From the NCBI GenBank assembly GCA_026988245.1, contig JALSLR010000014.1:6660-70659 (forward strand): DNA of 64,000 nucleotides. Direction: 5' to 3'. The translations under genes and the position numbers were made by a program. Shown here one piece after another: positions 8,732-16,610 of this stretch (position 1 is its first letter; every line of letters starts with the position of its first letter). The notes under the pieces are model-generated. The model saw only the letters and a list, made by a program, of their open reading frames with translations, did no database searches and was not told where the DNA came from. Source of the stretch: Sulfurimonas sp. Its GTDB lineage: Bacteria; Campylobacterota; Campylobacteria; Campylobacterales; Sulfurimonadaceae.

Positions 8732-8757
8732 AGTAGAGCATAGAGCTCTACTTTTTC
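8732..8757 (+). terminator. Rho-independent terminator of the porin gene
   Basis: AGTAGAGC-ataga-GCTCTACT followed by a T-run. Overlaps the stop of the convergent gene. Confidence 0.7.
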
Positions 8758-9425
8758 TTTCTCGTTTTAGAAACCCTCTCTTTGTTAACTTTATATTTAG
8801 CATTTTTTAGTTTTTCAATAATTTCTGCACTTACATTGAGTATATCAGAGATGATGTCTTCGTCGTCTTTTTTAAAATTTTTTCTGTTTGATTCAAAAAT
8901 ATATATCAACTCTTCAAAATCAATATCTTGTAAAAATGGATAAAGAGCGATGCACTTTTCCTCCTCGACTATCCAGTGACTTAAAACACATATAACTAAA
9001 AACTCAGGGATGTAAGCGGGCTTGTTCATAAAATGAGTACTCACTTTGTGGGCCATAGAATCGTAATAATACATTAATGGCTCTTCATGTTTAGCGAGTT
9101 TTTTCATCTGAGCATTTATCTTAGCCCCTTGGACTAAATTTATTAGATAGTCCGCATTGACTACATATTTTTGTAAGTTATTTTTTAAGTCACTTAAGGT
9201 TTTATATACTAAGTCAGTGTCTTCTTTTGAGCCAACTTCGGGTGAATACTTCATCTCATCTATATGTACAAAATACCTCTCAAGTGCTGTTCTCGCAAAG
9301 ACTAGCAAGGCTTCCGTTTTAACACCGCTTAGCATCGTAGGTTTTACTCTATGCGTGCAGTAGTTGTTTACTTCATCTTCTTGAATCTTTTTTATATTTT
9401 CATCAATAGCTAGGTTTCTTAACAT
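8748..9425 (-). CDS. Hypothetical cytoplasmic alpha-helical protein, last gene of the CA-SulP-BC operon
   Basis: 225-aa ORF with AAGGAG RBS 9 bp after the upstream SulP stop. Basic C-terminal tail 'RVSKTRKKK'. No motif recognised. Confidence 0.8.
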   Translation of the reverse strand: MLRNLAIDENIKKIQEDEVNNYCTHRVKPTMLSGVKTEALLVFARTALERYFVHIDEMKYSPEVGSKEDTDLVYKTLSDLKNNLQKYVVNADYLINLVQGAKINAQMKKLAKHEEPLMYYYDSMAHKVSTHFMNKPAYIPEFLVICVLSHWIVEEEKCIALYPFLQDIDFEELIYIFESNRKNFKKDDEDIISDILNVSAEIIEKLKNAKYKVNKERVSKTRKKK

Positions 9426-9434
9426 TGTGTCTCC

Positions 9435-11126
9435 TTAGTATCGCCAAAGAATTTTATGTTTTTTATTCTTTAAACTGTCATTCTTGAAGTTTAATTGACA
9501 ATCTTGAAGCTTTTTAATAGCATCGTTAAAAGTAGTAAATATATTTTCACTATCAACTAGATTAGGGATGAGGTCTATATTTTTTAACATATCTAATGGT
9601 TGCGGTTGAATGCCTACTATAACGACCGTAATATCTTTTTTTTGTAACTCTAAAATTGCATCTTCGATAGCATACATTCCTGACTGGTCAATACTTGGTA
9701 CTTTTTCCATCCTCAAAATAACTACACTGACATCTGGAAGTTCTTTCATCATTTTTTTAAAATGTGAGGTGAAACCAAAAAAGATAGGTCCATCAAAATG
9801 TTGGATATATATCTGATGTTTGATGTTATTTGAGATATTTTGTTCATCTGCTTCACTTGGAGAAGTTTCAAAATCATCAAGTATAGAGCTCACTGCTCTT
9901 GATTCTGCTGTATCACCCATCTGTTTCATGAAAAGTAATGATGCCATTATAAGGCCTACGGCAACTGCTTGAAGAAGATCTACAAATACAGTAAGTGTTA
10001 GTACTATTAACATAACTACAGCATCAGATCGAGGGACTCTTGAAATATGTTTGATACCTTTGTAGTCAATGATACCGATACCTACACTTACTAGGATACC
10101 TGCTAACACAGGAAGGGGAATGAGCTTTGCATATACACCAGCACCAAGGAGGACTATAAGTAAGATGATAGAGTGTATCATGCCGGCAAGTTTACCTGTG
10201 CCTCCTGCATTAATATTGACAACTGTACGCATAGTAGCCCCTGCACCTGGAAGTCCTCCTATAATACCAGCAATCATATTTCCTACACCCTGCCCAATAA
10301 GTTCTTTGTTTGAATTATGTTGAGTTTTTGTCATGTTATCAGCTACTACAGAGGTTAAAAGTGAATCTATAGCTCCTAATGATGCTAAGGTTAAGGCAGG
10401 GATAATCATAACCATAGGATGGTGCCAGTCCATGTTTAATAGAGTATCTATATGTACATCCGGTAAACCTTTAGGTATATTTCCTATTACTGGAACATTG
10501 AGTTCTAAAAATGCTGTGATGAATGTGAGTACTAAAAGTGCTACGAGCGTGGATGGTACCTTTTTTGTTACTCTAGGAAAAAGATATATGATAGCAAGAG
10601 TACTTAAAGAAAGAAAAATTGCTTCTTTGTTTATTTCATTTGCTATAGTGCCAAGGTTTGAAAATATATCAAGTATTTTCCCTGGTGATTTCATACCAAA
10701 AAAAGGAAATATTTGCATAATGATGATAATCATGCCTATTCCGCTCATAAATCCAGAAATGACAGGATACGGCATATATCGTATATATTGACCTATGCGA
10801 GCCACACCCATGACAACCATAAAAAGACCAGCTAGGACAAAAGTAGCTACTATAGTTCCAATAGCTGCTTCAACGGAGCCATATACTGCGATTTCTCCTG
10901 CAATTATTGCTGATGAAACAACTGTCATTGGACCTGTTGGACCAGATATCTGAGTATTTGTACCACCTAGGAGTGATGCAAAAAAGCCTAAAGCAATCGC
11001 TCCATAAAGTCCTGCAATTGCACCCATTCCAGACTGAACACCAAAGGCAAGGGCTAGGGGGAGCGCAACTATAGCGGCTGTAAGACCTCCAAATATATTT
11101 CCTGATAAGTTTTTAGTTTCTAACAA
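9435..11126 (-). CDS. SulP/SLC26 anion transporter with STAS domain, BicA-like (probable bicarbonate transporter)
   Basis: 'GGLTAAIVALPLALAFG', 'ISGPTGPMTVV', 'GATMRTVVNI', STAS 'FDGPIFFGFT...IDQSG'. TTG start with RBS. Confidence 0.9.
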   Translation of the reverse strand: MLETKNLSGNIFGGLTAAIVALPLALAFGVQSGMGAIAGLYGAIALGFFASLLGGTNTQISGPTGPMTVVSSAIIAGEIAVYGSVEAAIGTIVATFVLAGLFMVVMGVARIGQYIRYMPYPVISGFMSGIGMIIIIMQIFPFFGMKSPGKILDIFSNLGTIANEINKEAIFLSLSTLAIIYLFPRVTKKVPSTLVALLVLTFITAFLELNVPVIGNIPKGLPDVHIDTLLNMDWHHPMVMIIPALTLASLGAIDSLLTSVVADNMTKTQHNSNKELIGQGVGNMIAGIIGGLPGAGATMRTVVNINAGGTGKLAGMIHSIILLIVLLGAGVYAKLIPLPVLAGILVSVGIGIIDYKGIKHISRVPRSDAVVMLIVLTLTVFVDLLQAVAVGLIMASLLFMKQMGDTAESRAVSSILDDFETSPSEADEQNISNNIKHQIYIQHFDGPIFFGFTSHFKKMMKELPDVSVVILRMEKVPSIDQSGMYAIEDAILELQKKDITVVIVGIQPQPLDMLKNIDLIPNLVDSENIFTTFNDAIKKLQDCQLNFKNDSLKNKKHKILWRY

Positions 11127-11140
11127 TTTTTTCCTTCTTT

Positions 11141-12592
11141 TTAATGTCTAATGTTTAAGTTATGTTCTTTTATAGATGCTATTATATCTTCTAAGTGCTT
11201 GATTTTTTCTTCCTCTTTTCTCCGTTGATTATTGGCTTCAAGATTAAAAGTAGCAAGATTTTTGTCAAAGTATCCAGTATCAAAACGTGCATTTTTAAAG
11301 TCTTCATCTTTAGCAATTTGCTGATGCAAGGTTATGTTAGTGGGTATCCCCTCTATGATATACTCAGACAAAGCTCTTTGTGCTTTTTTGACAACGCCCT
11401 CCCAGCTTTTAGCATATACTATAAGTTTACCTATCATAGAGTCATAGTACGTTGGAATCTCATATCCTTTATAGGCAATAGCATCAAGACGAACTCCTGG
11501 ACCACCGGGGGAAAGGTACTCTGTAATAGTTCCAGGATGTGGAGCAAAGTCTCTACTTGCATCTTCTGCATTTATCCTAAACTCTATAGCGTAACCATGA
11601 AAGTGAATATCATCTTGTTTATACTGAAGTTTATCACCATCTGCTATCTCTATCATACGTTGGATGAGGTCAAATCCTGAGATGATTTCTGTCACTGGAT
11701 GCTCCACTTGTATGCGAGTATTCATCTCCATAAAGTAAAAATTATCTTGTGTATCTACTAAGTATTCAATAGTTCCAACACTTTCATATCCAAGCTGTTT
11801 CATTGCATCTATAGAGACGCGAAAAAGTTCTTGTCTGACATCGTCATTTAAATTTGGTGCTGGTGCTATCTCTACTACTTTTTGGTGTCGCCTTTGAATG
11901 GAGCAGTCACGCTCACCAAGATGCACAACATTTCCATAACTATCAGCAATAACTTGAATTTCTATATGTCGAGGGTTTTGTAAGTAGCGTTCTATAAATA
12001 CTTCATCACGTCCAAAAAACTTACGAGATTCACTCTGCGCATCATCAAATGATTTTTTAAAATCCTTAGCATCATGGACTATACGCATACCGCGTCCACC
12101 TCCACCAAAGGCAGCTTTTATGATGATGGGGTAGCCTATCTCTTTGGCAAAAGATTCCCCTTCTTGGTAGGTAGCGAGTGGTTCATCTGTTCCTGGGAGT
12201 ACAGGGACACCAACATCTTTCATGGCATTTTTAGAGGCTATTTTATCACCAAAGAGAGCGATATGTTCAGCACTTGGGCCTATGAAAATGATATTGGCGT
12301 TTGTACATGCTTGTGCAAAGTCTGCATTTTCAGATAAAAATCCATACCCAGGATGGACAGCATCACACTCAGCTTTTTTTGCTAAGGTCACTATCCGTTC
12401 ATAATCGAGATAGGCTTCTATTGGGTTACCAAGTATTGGGTATGCTTCATCGGCTTTTTTTAACCAAGCCCCATTGACGTCTACTTCTGAGAAAAGGCAA
12501 ACACTAGTTATGTTGAGTTCTTTACAAGCTCTTATGATTCTAAGTGCTATCTCACCTCTGTTTGCTATAAGTATCTTTTTAATTTTTTGCAT
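11141..12592 (-). CDS. Biotin carboxylase subunit (PycA/CfiB-like length and C-terminal helix)
   Basis: 'ILIANRGEIALR', 'HPGYGFLSEN', 'GGGGRGMR', 'ERDCSIQRRHQK', 'EMNTRIQVEHPVTE', 'YDSMIGKL'. 483 aa with a C-terminal extension. Confidence 0.92.
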   Translation of the reverse strand: MQKIKKILIANRGEIALRIIRACKELNITSVCLFSEVDVNGAWLKKADEAYPILGNPIEAYLDYERIVTLAKKAECDAVHPGYGFLSENADFAQACTNANIIFIGPSAEHIALFGDKIASKNAMKDVGVPVLPGTDEPLATYQEGESFAKEIGYPIIIKAAFGGGGRGMRIVHDAKDFKKSFDDAQSESRKFFGRDEVFIERYLQNPRHIEIQVIADSYGNVVHLGERDCSIQRRHQKVVEIAPAPNLNDDVRQELFRVSIDAMKQLGYESVGTIEYLVDTQDNFYFMEMNTRIQVEHPVTEIISGFDLIQRMIEIADGDKLQYKQDDIHFHGYAIEFRINAEDASRDFAPHPGTITEYLSPGGPGVRLDAIAYKGYEIPTYYDSMIGKLIVYAKSWEGVVKKAQRALSEYIIEGIPTNITLHQQIAKDEDFKNARFDTGYFDKNLATFNLEANNQRRKEEEKIKHLEDIIASIKEHNLNIRH

Positions 12593-14146
12593 CTATTTTT
12601 CTCCTATCTCGTTGTGGCAGTATGCTTTTCGTGTTGCTTTTATATTGTCGTCTGGTGCTGCTTTGATGAAGTCTTCAACTGTCTCCATAATGTCATGATC
12701 AACATATTGTGACTTTGAACAATCAACTACAAGAGTTGCATTTTCTGGTACTTTTAAAAGTAATTTTCTTAAAAGTGCTTTGTTAAGGAAAGAAACATCT
12801 TTATGAAACTGTATGGTATATTTATCTTCATCGTTCCTCATTGTGATAGATGCATGATAATTCGCACGAATTACAAAAAATAATCCTACAAATATACCTA
12901 TGATGATACCTTGAAGTAAGTCTGTTGCTATCACTGCAATGATGGTGATAATAAAAGGTAAAAATTGCGTTAATCCATCTTTGTACATGGTATAAAACTG
13001 GTGTGGATTGACAAGTTTAAAACCGATATAGAGTAAAATCGCAGCAAGTGCTGAGAGCGGTATCATGTTTAAATAGTTTGCTAAAAAAAGTACACTTAAC
13101 AAGAGCCATACTGCATGTAAAAAGGCAGATATACGAGTAACTCCACCAGCATGAACATTTGCAGAACTTCTTACTATAACGGCAGTGATAGGTAGACCAC
13201 CGATGAGTCCACTTAAAATATTGCCTAAACCTTGGGCTTTAAGTTCGCGGTTGGTTGGGGCTATCCTTTTGAGAGGGTCTAGTTTATTGACCGCTTCTAA
13301 GCTTAATAGTGTCTCAAGACTTGCTATGATGGCTAAAGTAATGGCAACTACATAGACTTGAGGGTTGAGAAAGACACTAAAATCAGGATGTACAAACAGT
13401 GCAGTAAGTTCTGAAAAATCATTCAAAATAGGGAGTGATACCAAATGTTTTGGTGAAACTGCAAAAGATGGAAAATATTCAAGAGCGATGAGGTTAAAGA
13501 TAACGCCCCAAAGAACAGCTATAAGTGCACCTGGTGTACGGCGAATGACAGTGAACTTTCTCATCCATGAGGTATCCCAAAGTATGAGTATAGCTAAAGA
13601 AACTAGAGCGATAGTTGTAGCCCCTTGTGAAATCGCTCCAAAGGAGTCAAAAAGCTCATGAAAACTAGAGTTTGCACTCTCCATCATGTAGCTATCATCC
13701 CCTTCAAAGCTTACATCATAGCCTACAGCATGTGGAATCTGTTTTATGATAAGTATCAAACCAATAGCAGAAAGCATAGCTTTTATAACAGATGATGGGA
13801 AAAATGCCCCTATGATACCAGCTCGTAAATATCCCATGACAAGTTGAATGACACCAGCTATAACTACGCTGAGTAAAAATGCTTCAAAACTTCCTAAGGT
13901 TTCAATCGCCATAAAAACTATAACAGTAAGTCCAGCCGCAGGGCCAGATACGCTAAGTTGAGATCCACTTGCCCATGAAACGACAAGTCCTCCGACTATC
14001 CCAGCTATAAGACCTGCAAAAAGAGGAGCCCCTGATGCCATAGCTATACCCAAACATAAGGGTAAAGCTACAAGAAAAACGGCAATACTAGCCGGAGCAT
14101 CATGCTTAAGATGCTTCGCGTAATAATCTAAATGCTTATGTATCAT
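12593..14146 (-). CDS. SulP family transporter of the carbonic-anhydrase-associated clade, short STAS-like tail
   Basis: 'VFLVALPLCLGIAMASGAP', 'VSGPAAGL', 'TAVIVRSSANV'. Start overlaps the CA stop. Confidence 0.9.
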   Translation of the reverse strand: MIHKHLDYYAKHLKHDAPASIAVFLVALPLCLGIAMASGAPLFAGLIAGIVGGLVVSWASGSQLSVSGPAAGLTVIVFMAIETLGSFEAFLLSVVIAGVIQLVMGYLRAGIIGAFFPSSVIKAMLSAIGLILIIKQIPHAVGYDVSFEGDDSYMMESANSSFHELFDSFGAISQGATTIALVSLAILILWDTSWMRKFTVIRRTPGALIAVLWGVIFNLIALEYFPSFAVSPKHLVSLPILNDFSELTALFVHPDFSVFLNPQVYVVAITLAIIASLETLLSLEAVNKLDPLKRIAPTNRELKAQGLGNILSGLIGGLPITAVIVRSSANVHAGGVTRISAFLHAVWLLLSVLFLANYLNMIPLSALAAILLYIGFKLVNPHQFYTMYKDGLTQFLPFIITIIAVIATDLLQGIIIGIFVGLFFVIRANYHASITMRNDEDKYTIQFHKDVSFLNKALLRKLLLKVPENATLVVDCSKSQYVDHDIMETVEDFIKAAPDDNIKATRKAYCHNEIGEK

Positions 14147-14804
14147 GATGCGTATCTTTAAGGTCTAAATCCTCAAGTGATTTAAAATTAGATGCATCTG
14201 GGTCATAATACTCTATATCCCCATTAGCTATGTCATATATCCATCCATGTATATGAATACTTCCATCTTCTACACCCTGTTTTACATAAGGGTAGGTCAA
14301 TAAGTTTTCGATTTGATACACTACTGAAAGCTTTTCAGTCAGTCGTAAAAGCTGATCATGACTAGCCTGTTTACCAATAGAGAGTTTTGCAAGGGATTTT
14401 GCTTTTTCACCCAATGTGAGCCATTTTTTAGTATGGACAAATGGTTTGTCTTCTATCTCTTCATAAAGAGCAGCTATAGCCCCGCAATGTGTATGACCAC
14501 AAATGATGATTTCTGAAACATTAAGCGCAGTTACAGCGTACTCAATGCCTGATGCTGTGGCATGAAAGTCTTCATCTGGTTTATAGGGTGCTACAAAGTT
14601 ACCAACATTTCTAAGAACAAACAAGTCCCCTGGATTAGTTTGTGTTATAAGGTTTGGTATCACTCTTGAATCTGCACATCCAATAAAAAGTGCTTTTGGA
14701 TGCTGTCCATTTTCGGCTAAATCTAGCAACTCTAGTTTATGTTTTTTAAAGTAACTTTTTTTAAATACATCGTTACCTTTTAATAATACGCTATTTTTAA
14801 GCAT
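14136..14804 (-). CDS. can: Beta-class carbonic anhydrase
   Basis: Zn ligands 'GCADSR' and 'CGHTHCGA', plus 'LRNVGN'. AAGGAG RBS. Confidence 0.95.
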   Translation of the reverse strand: MLKNSVLLKGNDVFKKSYFKKHKLELLDLAENGQHPKALFIGCADSRVIPNLITQTNPGDLFVLRNVGNFVAPYKPDEDFHATASGIEYAVTALNVSEIIICGHTHCGAIAALYEEIEDKPFVHTKKWLTLGEKAKSLAKLSIGKQASHDQLLRLTEKLSVVYQIENLLTYPYVKQGVEDGSIHIHGWIYDIANGDIEYYDPDASNFKSLEDLDLKDTHHDT

Positions 14805-14851
14805 AATTATCTCCTTGTAATAAATTTTATAAATATATATGAAAGTAAAAA

Positions 14852-15133
14852 TTATGCTTGGATGGGTGGTCTGAGAATGCTACTTAAATGAAGATAGTTG
14901 TAGAAAGTCTCTTCTACGGTATGGCTGTGGTAAGTTTTCTGTTGTAGAGTGATTGTGAGATGAGATAGAACGAAATCATCATCAATATATTTGTCTATGA
15001 TTCTTTTTTCAAAAACATACTCAATAGTTTTAATAGGTTTACTTTCTAAAACTATTGTACTTGAGATGTATTCAAAGGTCAAGATAGAGATGAACAATAG
15101 TGCCAATGTTAAACTAATGATACGTATTTTCAT
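14852..15133 (-). CDS. Small membrane-anchored leader ORF ending in ILRPPIQA (candidate ribosome-arrest/regulatory peptide)
   Basis: 93 aa, N-terminal hydrophobic helix, His-containing C-terminal part, C-terminal RPP. 47 bp upstream of CA, directly under a consensus promoter. Confidence 0.7.
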   Translation of the reverse strand: MKIRIISLTLALLFISILTFEYISSTIVLESKPIKTIEYVFEKRIIDKYIDDDFVLSHLTITLQQKTYHSHTVEETFYNYLHLSSILRPPIQA

Positions 15134-15139
15134 AGTTAC

Positions 15140-15168
15140 ATTGTATGTGTATTTTAGTATCTTGTCAA
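15140..15168 (-). promoter_or_regulatory. Sigma70 promoter giving a probably leaderless transcript of the RPP ORF and CA operon
   Basis: TTGACA (15163-15168), 17 bp, TACAAT (15140-15145), 6 nt, ATG (15133). No SD. Confidence 0.75.
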
Positions 15169-15245
15169 GGGAAAGTGAAGTTTGTGAGTATCTATAGTTT
15201 AAGTGATACTATAATACTCACAAATAATAAATATTTTTTTACTTA

Positions 15246-16610
15246 TTATACTCCATCAACGCGGAGGGCTTTGTCTTTTCCTATCATCATATCTACTGTT
15301 TTTTGTATGCGTATCCATACAGATTCTTGTCTATACTCAATGTTATGTTTACGACACACTTCTTTTACAAGTGGTTGCATTTTTTGTTGGTAAGACTGCG
15401 GTGTATTTGGAAACAAATGATGCTCTATCTGGTAGTTTAAAAAACCATGTGTAAAGTCTATGAGGTCACTTCCTGTATTGTAGTTAACGCTTCCCATGAT
15501 TTGTCTAAGATAGAACTCGCCTTGAGATTTGTGTGGCTCTGAGAACTGGTAAATATCTCCAGCAGAGTGGTTAGGAACGATGACTAAAAATGAGTGAAGA
15601 TTTGCGTATGCTTCAGCCATTACAAGTATGATAAATGCACTCCAAACTGCACCCCATCCAAGAGGTAAAAACAGAAGTGGCATACCAACAAACTGAAAAA
15701 GTCCGTATGGAAGATAAAAATCTTTCCATAGTTTTCTTCCTGTGTCGTTTGTTGGAAGGTAGTTATACTCAGTAGTTTCAGGTTGCTTGTTTATGCGTCT
15801 TTCTTTGTTGTCTAAAATTCTCATCGTATTTGGAGCATAGTAGATGAACTTCCATACCATAGCAAAAGCATAGACTACTAGTTTTTTTGCCCAATATGGC
15901 GCTGGTGAAGTGATGAGCCATTGAAGATTTTTCTCAACATTGTCTGGGTCATCATTTTCACCTAAATGGTAGTGGTGCATAATGTTGTGTTCATACTCCC
16001 AAGCATCTGGTTTAATCCAGTCTAGCCAGTCTACAAAACGTCTTGTTCCACGAGCATAGCCTTTTTTCTTGTATTTTAAAGGTACATTTGGAACTTTGTC
16101 ATAAGCCCCATGAAGGATAGGGTGAGTTATATCTGCCCATCTAGTAACATTACCCACCCCTATGAGTACAGCTGCTATGATGCCAAGAGTCCAAAAGCCA
16201 AAAGAACCAAGTCCAGCTGAGAGCTCTAAGGCAGTGACAACATAAATCATAAAAAAGCCTAAGTATGTAGCTCCACGCGACCAGCGTTCAAGTTTAAGAA
16301 GGTGCTGAAAATCCTCTTGTCCAACTGGACCTATCTTTTCTTTGATATCTTCTATATCTTTTTGAAGTAGGTCTTTATCTATATCTTCATACTTAGTATA
16401 TACATGGTCAGCTGGTAATGCTTCAAATGTTTGTTGTGTAGGTGATACATCTTTTACCTCTTCAAATATATGCGTCTCATGTTGTGCTTCTTCAGCCCAA
16501 ATCTCTTCTTGTTTCGCAATCTCTTGTGCTTCTTCGTTTGAGATTATAGCTTCTCTTGCTTCTCTTTGTTCGATGATATCATCTAAAGATTTTTCTGGAT
16601 TGTTTGACAA
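15246..16610 (-). CDS. Membrane fatty-acid (acyl-CoA/acyl-lipid) desaturase, DesA3/DesB-like
   Basis: Three His boxes: HPILH, HNIMHH, QIEHH. TTG start with GGGGG RBS. Confidence 0.88.
   Translation of the reverse strand: MSNNPEKSLDDIIEQREAREAIISNEEAQEIAKQEEIWAEEAQHETHIFEEVKDVSPTQQTFEALPADHVYTKYEDIDKDLLQKDIEDIKEKIGPVGQEDFQHLLKLERWSRGATYLGFFMIYVVTALELSAGLGSFGFWTLGIIAAVLIGVGNVTRWADITHPILHGAYDKVPNVPLKYKKKGYARGTRRFVDWLDWIKPDAWEYEHNIMHHYHLGENDDPDNVEKNLQWLITSPAPYWAKKLVVYAFAMVWKFIYYAPNTMRILDNKERRINKQPETTEYNYLPTNDTGRKLWKDFYLPYGLFQFVGMPLLFLPLGWGAVWSAFIILVMAEAYANLHSFLVIVPNHSAGDIYQFSEPHKSQGEFYLRQIMGSVNYNTGSDLIDFTHGFLNYQIEHHLFPNTPQSYQQKMQPLVKEVCRKHNIEYRQESVWIRIQKTVDMMIGKDKALRVDGV

Follow-up and report, generated by a model that had tools for sequence, protein, structure and literature searches.

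The DNA examined here, a 64,000-nt stretch of a Sulfurimonas sp. genome (assembly GCA_026988245.1, contig JALSLR010000014.1, positions 6,660 to 70,659; referred to below as the window), carries on its minus strand an operon that begins with the gene of a beta-carbonic anhydrase (CA) and continues with a SulP-family transporter gene. Directly ahead of the CA gene lies a small upstream open reading frame (uORF) of 93 codons, which is the subject of this report and a candidate leader peptide acting by ribosome stalling. The uORF and the features associated with it are the following (window coordinates):

15140..15168, minus strand: sigma-70-type promoter, with TTGACA at 15168-15163, a 17-nt spacer and TACAAT at 15145-15140
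14852..15133, minus strand: uORF, stop codon included, encoding 93 aa
15047..15121, minus strand: N-terminal signal/transmembrane (TM) segment, residues 5-29, hydrophobic run IISLTLALLFISILTF
14861..14875, minus strand: candidate arrest motif L87-R88-P89-P90-I91 (ctc aga cca ccc atc), three codons ahead of the stop
14842..14860, minus strand: 5' strand of a predicted hairpin, opposing the ribosome-binding site (RBS) of CA, CAAGCAUAAUUUUUACUUU, made up of the two final codons, the stop codon and 10 nt of spacer
14799..14816, minus strand: 3' strand of the same hairpin, AAGGAGAUAAUUAUGCUU, comprising the Shine-Dalgarno (SD) sequence AAGGAG, spacer, the CA ATG (14804-14802) and CTT
14805..14992, minus strand: C-rich, G-poor candidate Rho-utilisation region covering the 3' half of the uORF and the spacer (C 21%, G 9%, skew +0.40)

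The peptide reads MKIRIISL...SSILRPPIQA (full-length ends MKIRIISLTLALLFISILTFEYISS...HLSSILRPPIQA), contains M1 as its sole methionine and is terminated by a TAA codon at 14854-14852. The promoter matches the consensus at 11 of 12 positions and was the top-scoring site between 14000 and 16000 in a promoter scan. Since only the six nucleotides gtaact separate its -10 box from the ATG (15133-15131), with no purine-rich SD among them, the start codon has no possible SD; the predicted +1 falls on or adjacent to the A of the ATG, which implies that the mRNA of the leader would be leaderless. The promoter, the SD-less ATG and the 93-aa product ending in ILRPPIQA had all been described in the original prediction, made from the DNA letters alone, and all were confirmed on the minus strand. 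The gap of 47 bp given there is correct in length, but it runs from the stop to the CA ATG at 14804 and not to the CA RBS, the SD of which occupies 14816-14811. No intrinsic terminator was found between the uORF and CA on the minus strand, and an Rfam scan of 14700-15300 at E<=1 matched nothing. The N-terminal hydrophobic helix, likewise foreseen, is present in the AlphaFold2 (AF2) model as a helix of residues 2-30 with pLDDT values of 92-97. Modelled with the family alignment, the leader consists of two long helices and a coil at the C-terminus (mean pLDDT 76.5), and the pTM of 0.29 speaks for a peptide without a compact or globular fold.

The genus Sulfurimonas possesses a core beta-CA and an accessory beta-CA paralog, the window CA being of the accessory type. 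Of 121 Sulfurimonas genomes, 12 carry the accessory paralog, and 10 of these 12 copies are preceded by an ORF of 90-94 aa that ends 47-66 nt ahead of the CA start. All ten ORFs end in [RK]PP followed by one to four residues, even though four of them have otherwise diverged past recognition; among the long ORFs of the window genome, such an ending occurs once in 1833. A whole-genome search with a hidden Markov model located the leader family in 51 of 353 Sulfurimonadaceae genomes, distributed over 9 of 23 genera, and the resulting set comprises 78 unique peptides with a median length of 94 aa (interquartile range 93-95). A profile search of 1.84 billion representative proteins returned 42 clusters (50% identity) at E<=1e-3, nearly all of 90-97 aa, the public names of which are 'hypothetical protein' only (e.g. 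in S. marina, S. sp. C5 and S. microaerophilic). An open frame arising by chance was rejected as an explanation, as homologous open frames occupy the same position in many genomes. The leader has no family match in Pfam or NCBIfam, one member giving a sub-threshold BVU_2266-like match in Pfam, and PF11162 (DUF2946) matched neither the window ORF nor the 51 family members at E<=1.

The only invariant columns in the alignment of 51 sequences are P89 and P90. The residue before this Pro-Pro (PP) pair is Lys or Arg in 75 of the 78 peptides, Lys being as common as Arg, and the residue one further towards the N-terminus is Phe, Leu, Ile or Tyr, again in 75 of 78. An Ile directly follows PP in 63 of 78, and two to four residues trail PP in 74 of 78, so that the family motif is [FLIY]-[KR]-P-P-I. 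The R-x-P-P-like motif proposed initially has to be replaced accordingly, the Arg or Lys of [KR]PP abutting the PP pair directly. The codons of the two prolines vary synonymously (CCC accounts for 26%, compared with 8% genome-wide), which points to selection that acts on the amino acids or on how they are decoded. A hydrophobic N-terminal segment is found in every aligned member, at a near-constant distance of about 60 residues from PP. The mature part is acidic (net charge -2 to -10), with Glu at position 38 nearly invariant (>90%), and the middle of the peptide is divergent. The survey of relatives suggested beforehand, for a C-terminal RPP conserved despite a divergent middle, came out as expected in that the relatives keep the N-terminal segment and [KR]PP. 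Judged from the alignment, this pattern of conservation is typical of arrest peptides.

The geometry of the promoter is also retained, as anticipated for a leaderless start. Of 33 family loci, 26 have an SD-less ATG with a -10 hexamer of the type TAnnnT ending 5-8 nt (mostly 6-7 nt) ahead of it, and 13 of those 26 also show TTGAC[AT] at a spacing of 17 nt. A -10 box so close to the ATG implies a leaderless mRNA. Four members (P0021, P0038, L075 and L055) have been mis-started by gene callers, which produced internal-Met truncations of 78, 67 or 66 aa; one could be extended upstream to 124 aa. That gene callers truncate or miss leader ORFs of this kind is probably due to the missing SD at the true start. 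A separate deviation is seen at L056:434-745, where a member of 103 aa carries KPP 13 residues before its stop, and the stop lies 11 nt before the CA start. With so short a distance the SD of CA falls inside the uORF, and the arrangement gives the impression of the usual layout modified by read-through.

The end of the uORF is predicted to pair with the RBS of the next gene. In the window, the duplex of 14842-14860 with 14799-14816 has an energy of -15.6 kcal/mol at 25 °C (z -2.4), and the local minimum free energy fold one of -11 kcal/mol at 37 °C (z -1.86). Over the ensemble of the whole leader, the partners of the SD all fall between the PP codons and 20 nt beyond the stop. For the family, pairing was scored as the duplex of [stop-18..stop+20] with [start-18..+6] at 17 CA-linked loci, with 101 same-strand gene pairs of the window genome having spacers of 40-75 nt as controls. 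The mean z was -1.76 for the family, with 59% of loci below -2, as against -0.21 and 8% for the controls (Mann-Whitney p = 5.8e-5). A simulated ribosome footprint on PP lowered the mean opening energy of the RBS from 9.2 to 7.2 kcal/mol, compared with 9.25 kcal/mol for a footprint elsewhere (Wilcoxon p = 0.001). At individual loci, the change from the free RNA to a ribosome on PP was from 15.5 to 9.6 kcal/mol in the window, from 17.4 to 8.3 at L062 and from 10.4 to 3.8 at L066. Scored by the pairing probability of the SD, the ribosome-blocking simulation gave modest changes only.

The same part of the transcript is rich in C and poor in G. The C>G skew has a family mean of +0.39, versus -0.135 +/- 0.16 at gene 3' ends of the window genome, and exceeds 0.2 in 30 of 33 loci (91%), compared with 2.6% of the genome's gene 3' ends. 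For coding sequence only, the skew is +0.38, and C/(C+G) at four-fold degenerate third positions is 0.71 versus 0.58 genome-wide. Genes for Rho and for elongation factor P (EF-P) were both found in the genome.

The genes that follow the uORF in the window are listed below:

14136..14804, minus strand: beta-CA, accessory paralog, first gene after the uORF (Pfam Pro_CA 2e-47)
12593..14146, minus strand: SulP-family transporter (Pfam Sulfate_transp 6e-56), its start overlapping the CA stop
11141..12592, minus strand: biotin carboxylase, a bicarbonate-dependent carboxylase subunit, in a tight operon
9435..11126, minus strand: BicA-like SulP-STAS transporter (NCBIfam BicA 9e-144, under the curated cut-off)
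8748..9425, minus strand: protein X, 225 aa, last gene of the operon, without a Pfam or NCBIfam match

At most loci of the family the leader is followed by the gene of a beta-CA. An ortholog of the window SulP directly follows the uORF at L059; PurE comes after the leader at L071/L073, L093 and L095 and is followed there by a 213-aa protein and NhaA; and a 225-aa protein stands alone after the leader at L063/L064 and L094. Other genes in this position encode porins of the OprO/P or Porin_5 type, a TolC-like protein and a 127-aa secreted protein. Protein X of the window is 62% identical to the product of the gene directly after the uORF in L094/L063/L064 (L094:929-1606), and the L094 protein is 63% identical to the 213-aa product encoded between purE and nhaA (L093:1580-2221). 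The leaders stand in front of one common pool of genes, namely those for CA, SulP, a carboxylase subunit, PurE, X and NhaA, a set that is consistent with a response to bicarbonate/CO2, pH and Na+. The products are located in the cytoplasm (CA, PurE), the inner membrane (SulP, NhaA) and the outer membrane (porins, TolC), and this spread over three compartments makes it unlikely that the leader peptide has one fixed protein partner.

The observations are thus the anatomy of the leader, its conservation, the predicted pairing, the skew in composition and an analogy with RAPP leaders of the same genus described below, and on their strength we consider it fairly probable that the window ORF is a cis-acting stalling leader peptide of the CutF/CruR design. 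It would then probably switch carbon and pH genes on or off in the course of its own translation; the arrest itself, the direction of the regulation and the signal sensed are what we infer. The strong promoter would give rise to a leaderless mRNA, the 5'-terminal AUG of which starts the 93-aa peptide, and the hydrophobic N-terminus would direct the ribosome at work on it to the translocon of the membrane. Some 60 residues further on, this ribosome would pause or arrest at [FLIY]-[KR]-Pro-Pro-Ile, three codons before the stop. There it would cover the last codons and the stop and so open the hairpin over the SD and AUG of CA, and it would also occupy the C-rich, G-poor stretch where Rho would load. 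A long arrest would turn on CA, SulP, biotin carboxylase, the BicA-like SulP and protein X; after a quick release the RBS would stay closed and Rho termination would be allowed. The output could be produced by hairpin opening, by exclusion of Rho or by both, and release would probably be set by the acidic exported part of the nascent chain, through a periplasmic pulling force or folding.

CutF and CruR are stalling leaders that sense copper, and experimental support exists for their design (PMC9973294; bioRxiv 10.1101/2025.02.05.636593; PMC9426467; PMC12992588). CutF, encoded in cutFOG of Rhodobacter capsulatus, is a cotranslationally exported peptide of the CutF-like/DUF2946 type (PMC9973294; bioRxiv 10.1101/2025.02.05.636593). 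Like the window leader, it is a small exported peptide (<150 aa) that opens an operon; both carry an N-terminal signal of the Sec or signal recognition particle type and, shortly ahead of the stop, a C-terminal proline motif with basic residues nearby, and both are followed by a short spacer and an SD-shielding stem-loop that a stalled ribosome would melt, the stem-loop of the window being a predicted one. The window ORF passes the published filter for CutF-like proteins, that is, a length of <150 aa, a PP pair among the last 15 residues, a signal peptide and a same-strand gene downstream (PMC9973294). It differs in lacking a PF11162 match and any CxxxC or His metal site, in its motif, which is [KR]PP-I and not a PPP repeat, and in its mRNA, which is predicted to be leaderless. 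Moreover, CutF regulates metal homeostasis, whereas the present family heads genes for CA, SulP, PurE and NhaA.

CruR (Bp2923) of Bordetella pertussis undergoes arrest at its RAPP, three residues from the C-terminal end, and this is what blocks Rho at a C>G bubble (PMC9426467), the arrest having been confirmed in vitro (PMC12992588). The bubble is the Rho-utilisation site in that system, so that Rho termination is prevented by the lead ribosome while it is stalled. A C>G bubble is likewise present in the window and at 30 of 33 family loci, and the window genome encodes Rho. CruR itself is characterised by RAPP, an invariant CXXC, a 5' untranslated region, a spacer of 162 nt and a dispensable signal peptide; the present family, in contrast, has [KR]PP, no Cys, a predicted leaderless start and a spacer of 47-66 nt. 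Arrest peptides of the RAPP/RGPP type include ApdA, ApdP, ApcA and, with RAGP, SecM (Sakiyama 2021, Morici 2024 and Fujiwara 2025, as they are cited in PMC12992588). They too are small secreted or membrane proteins that carry an Arg-containing Pro-Pro near the C-terminus, lie upstream of the gene they regulate and show a variable region before the core. Their core R-[AG]-P-[PG] places a small residue between Arg and Pro, whereas in the present family there is none and Arg or Lys abuts PP; furthermore, the downstream genes here are not sec or yidC. Neither do they encode any protein-localisation factor, which sets the family apart from the substrates that monitor Sec and YidC (SecM, VemP, MifM). 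MifM, the leader of Bacillus subtilis yidC2, is about 95 aa long with an N-terminal membrane segment, arrests at its C-terminal end and sequesters an SD that is released by the stalled ribosome. The length and the membrane segment are alike in the window leader, for which arrest and SD opening are predictions only. The two sequences are unrelated, and MifM monitors membrane insertion, regulates an insertase, has no PP motif and is not leaderless.

A closer parallel in layout is provided by DUF2946-like leaders of the genus Sulfurimonas, of 90-91 aa, with HHHNDLKQHNDCQIC, HHH...CQIC and a terminal ARAPPxxS-stop. They occur at L085-L092 (genomes G034, G001, G025, G016, G018, G015 and G004), upstream of a gene for a secreted protein of 405-454 aa; the one scanned, after the L085 leader, is a BBP2-type beta-barrel. 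All seven of these leaders are predicted to be leaderless (TATAAT 5-6 nt before the ATG), they have a C>G skew of 0.23-0.47, and their last codons are complementary to the next SD. Homology between them and the [KR]PP family was rejected, the hhalign probability being 1%; by sequence, the two groups have the whole layout in common, with homology undetectable. A genome-wide PF11162 search of G000 found nothing.

Several points weigh against the arrest model. [KR]PP lacks the Ala or Gly of the RAPP/RGPP core that has been proven to arrest robustly, and RPP is not depleted in the proteome (observed/expected 1.00), although KPP is (0.58). EF-P, which is present here, normally resolves a simple pause at XPP. 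Three of the 78 members have Glu or Gln before PP, and in four of 78 PP lies further from the stop. Pairing of the RBS is predicted at about half of the loci, and L054, L002, L067, L069, L071 and L073 are without effect; the helices are AU-rich with large loops, and the z-scores of single loci are modest. The family loci are also phylogenetically related, which means that the tests overstate independence. Most of the C>G skew is supplied by codon positions 1 and 2, i.e. by amino-acid composition. Six porin-linked members carry ordinary SD sequences, so that leaderlessness is not universal. Finally, the moderate conservation of the mature N-terminal part is compatible with a protein having a function of its own.

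This last point leads to the alternative that survives best, namely that the ORF encodes a small exported or membrane-anchored protein acting in trans, such as an accessory subunit, a periplasmic factor or a CzcI-like regulator, with [KR]PPI as a tail for binding, sorting or protease recognition. Besides E38, the mature part holds an ExxSxKTxExVxEK motif and DD motifs, AF2 predicts a confident long helix of residues 34-71, the public records treat the family as a hypothetical protein, and CutF-like proteins without a PP motif, CzcI for example, are thought to act as proteins (PMC9973294). Against a role in trans stand the differing functions and compartments of the partner genes, the restriction of invariance to two prolines set 2-4 codons from the stop, the missing compact fold (pTM 0.29), the features at the level of RNA that link the end of the ORF to the next RBS together with the Rho-type composition, and the layout that the canonical RAPP leaders of the genus have in common with the family. 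On this evidence we regard a protein acting in trans as unlikely, and a stalling leader remains preferred.

A second alternative draws on an element upstream of the promoter:

15181..15224, minus strand: inverted repeat TTTGTGAGTAT...ATACTCACAAA of about 44 nt, directly upstream of the -35 box and centred near -70

The same hairpin precedes the uORF, with compensatory changes, in L002 (GTGTATTATAGT...ACTATAATACAC) and L021, and the upstream gene of L002 is a different one. The repeat could be an operator or else a terminator or insulator hairpin of the upstream desaturase gene. An operator regulon was rejected, the core motif having one exact copy in the genome and no second site that was convincing.

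In this alternative the uORF is a constitutive opening device, that is, a case of ordinary translational coupling in which PP only prolongs the dwell time and senses nothing, regulation being exerted at the promoter through the inverted repeat or by the efficiency of leaderless initiation. The RBS is in fact predicted to be opened as well by a ribosome on the stop codon as by one on PP (means of 7.25 and 7.20 kcal/mol), an inverted repeat is conserved upstream of the -35 box, and EF-P would relieve a simple PP pause. Such a device leaves unexplained, however, the conserved signal/TM segment, its spacing of about 60 residues to PP and the constant length, as well as the conserved flanks of PP (F/L at -2, K/R at -1, I at +1), and the inverted repeat is missing at many family loci. 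We therefore hold constitutive coupling to be improbable, more so than a protein acting in trans, and return to a stalling leader.

Zn sensing by the leader through His (SHL, YHSH, LHL), which would match CA synthesis to the supply of Zn and had been part of the original prediction, is very improbable, for although CA is a Zn enzyme, the mature part of the window copy holds four His, DUF2946 leaders sense metals through Cys/His and the TolC-linked L077 and L081 carry a CDIH-type motif, the CA-linked members L055, L058, L061, L003 and L072 contain neither His nor Cys, the closest homolog (P0002) has none in its mature part, the alignment of 51 sequences includes no conserved His column, and the CA-linked members, with 0-5 His and mostly no Cys, share no conserved metal-motif column. 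The His-containing tail noted earlier is accordingly present in the window copy and not conserved in the family. As for the regulatory leader of CA/SulP proposed there, conservation, RBS-sequestering pairing and the C>G bubble, as in CutF/CruR, speak in its favour, and the Zn/His link has fallen away. L077 (…CDIHFEYH…) and L081 (…CDIHHAFH…), the latter with Gln before PP, head TolC-like efflux genes and may represent a metal-sensing branch of the leader family.

For the stalling leader of the CA operon, the most coherent guess at a signal, which is speculation, is alkaline pH, low CO2 or the state of an ion gradient, read on the exported nascent chain. It is prompted by the acidic mature part, the nearly invariant E38 and the occurrence of the family ahead of CA, SulP, PurE, NhaA and porin genes. 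Going further, the family may tentatively be viewed as non-metal sensors of the exported nascent chain, in which the acidic periplasmic part reads periplasmic pH, the speciation of dissolved inorganic carbon (DIC) or the membrane potential and sets the arrest time at [KR]PP-I, thereby defining an alkaline/low-CO2 stimulon across the Sulfurimonadaceae. This view is somewhat doubtful, as is the membership that goes with it, comprising beta-CA, SulP/BicA-type transporters, biotin carboxylase, PurE, NhaA, X and anion porins.

To our knowledge, the regulation of DIC uptake in chemolithoautotrophs using the reductive tricarboxylic acid cycle is largely unknown. The compact, sequence-defined leader marks genes that would be under common control, i.e. 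those of CA, the two types of SulP, a carboxylase subunit, PurE, NhaA and the 225-aa protein. The design as such is known, and no description of the family was found in the literature searched; what sets it apart from the known cases is its motif, the lack of a metal site, the predicted leaderless start, the phylum and the pathway. CutF and CruR both belong to DUF2946 and both have Cys motifs, and the neighbours reported in surveys are metal, Sec and redox genes. The published surveys of such leaders contain no CA, porin, leaderless or Campylobacterota example; in a literature search, arrest peptides were not linked to CA, and Campylobacterota appeared only in a proteome-wide statistic. Because the published searches used four-residue RAPP/RGPP words, the present family was out of their reach. 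If the stalling leader is real, the CutF/CruR principle would no longer be confined to metals, nor to Pseudomonadota and Bacteroidota, but would include Campylobacterota; [FLIY]-[KR]-PP-I would be added as a motif that RAPP/RGPP word searches miss, and leaderless initiation would be an element that recurs in this lineage's form of the design. If, in addition, a condition of the envelope is sensed, a carbon-concentrating system would for the first time be described as under translational, transmembrane control, and [KR]PP by itself, with neither Ala nor Gly, could serve as a regulated arrest site.

Homologs of protein X are cytoplasmic proteins of 213-228 aa with a basic tail, KVNKxRVSKTRKKK; they are encoded between purE and nhaA in two Sulfurimonas genomes and alone after the leader in other genera. 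Protein X is a candidate component of a DIC/pH response. Two accessory CA copies, L033 and L035 (72% identical to the window CA), have no uORF; they are preceded by a GC-richer 5' region of about 400 nt, without an Rfam match, which is conserved between both and may be a different regulatory element.

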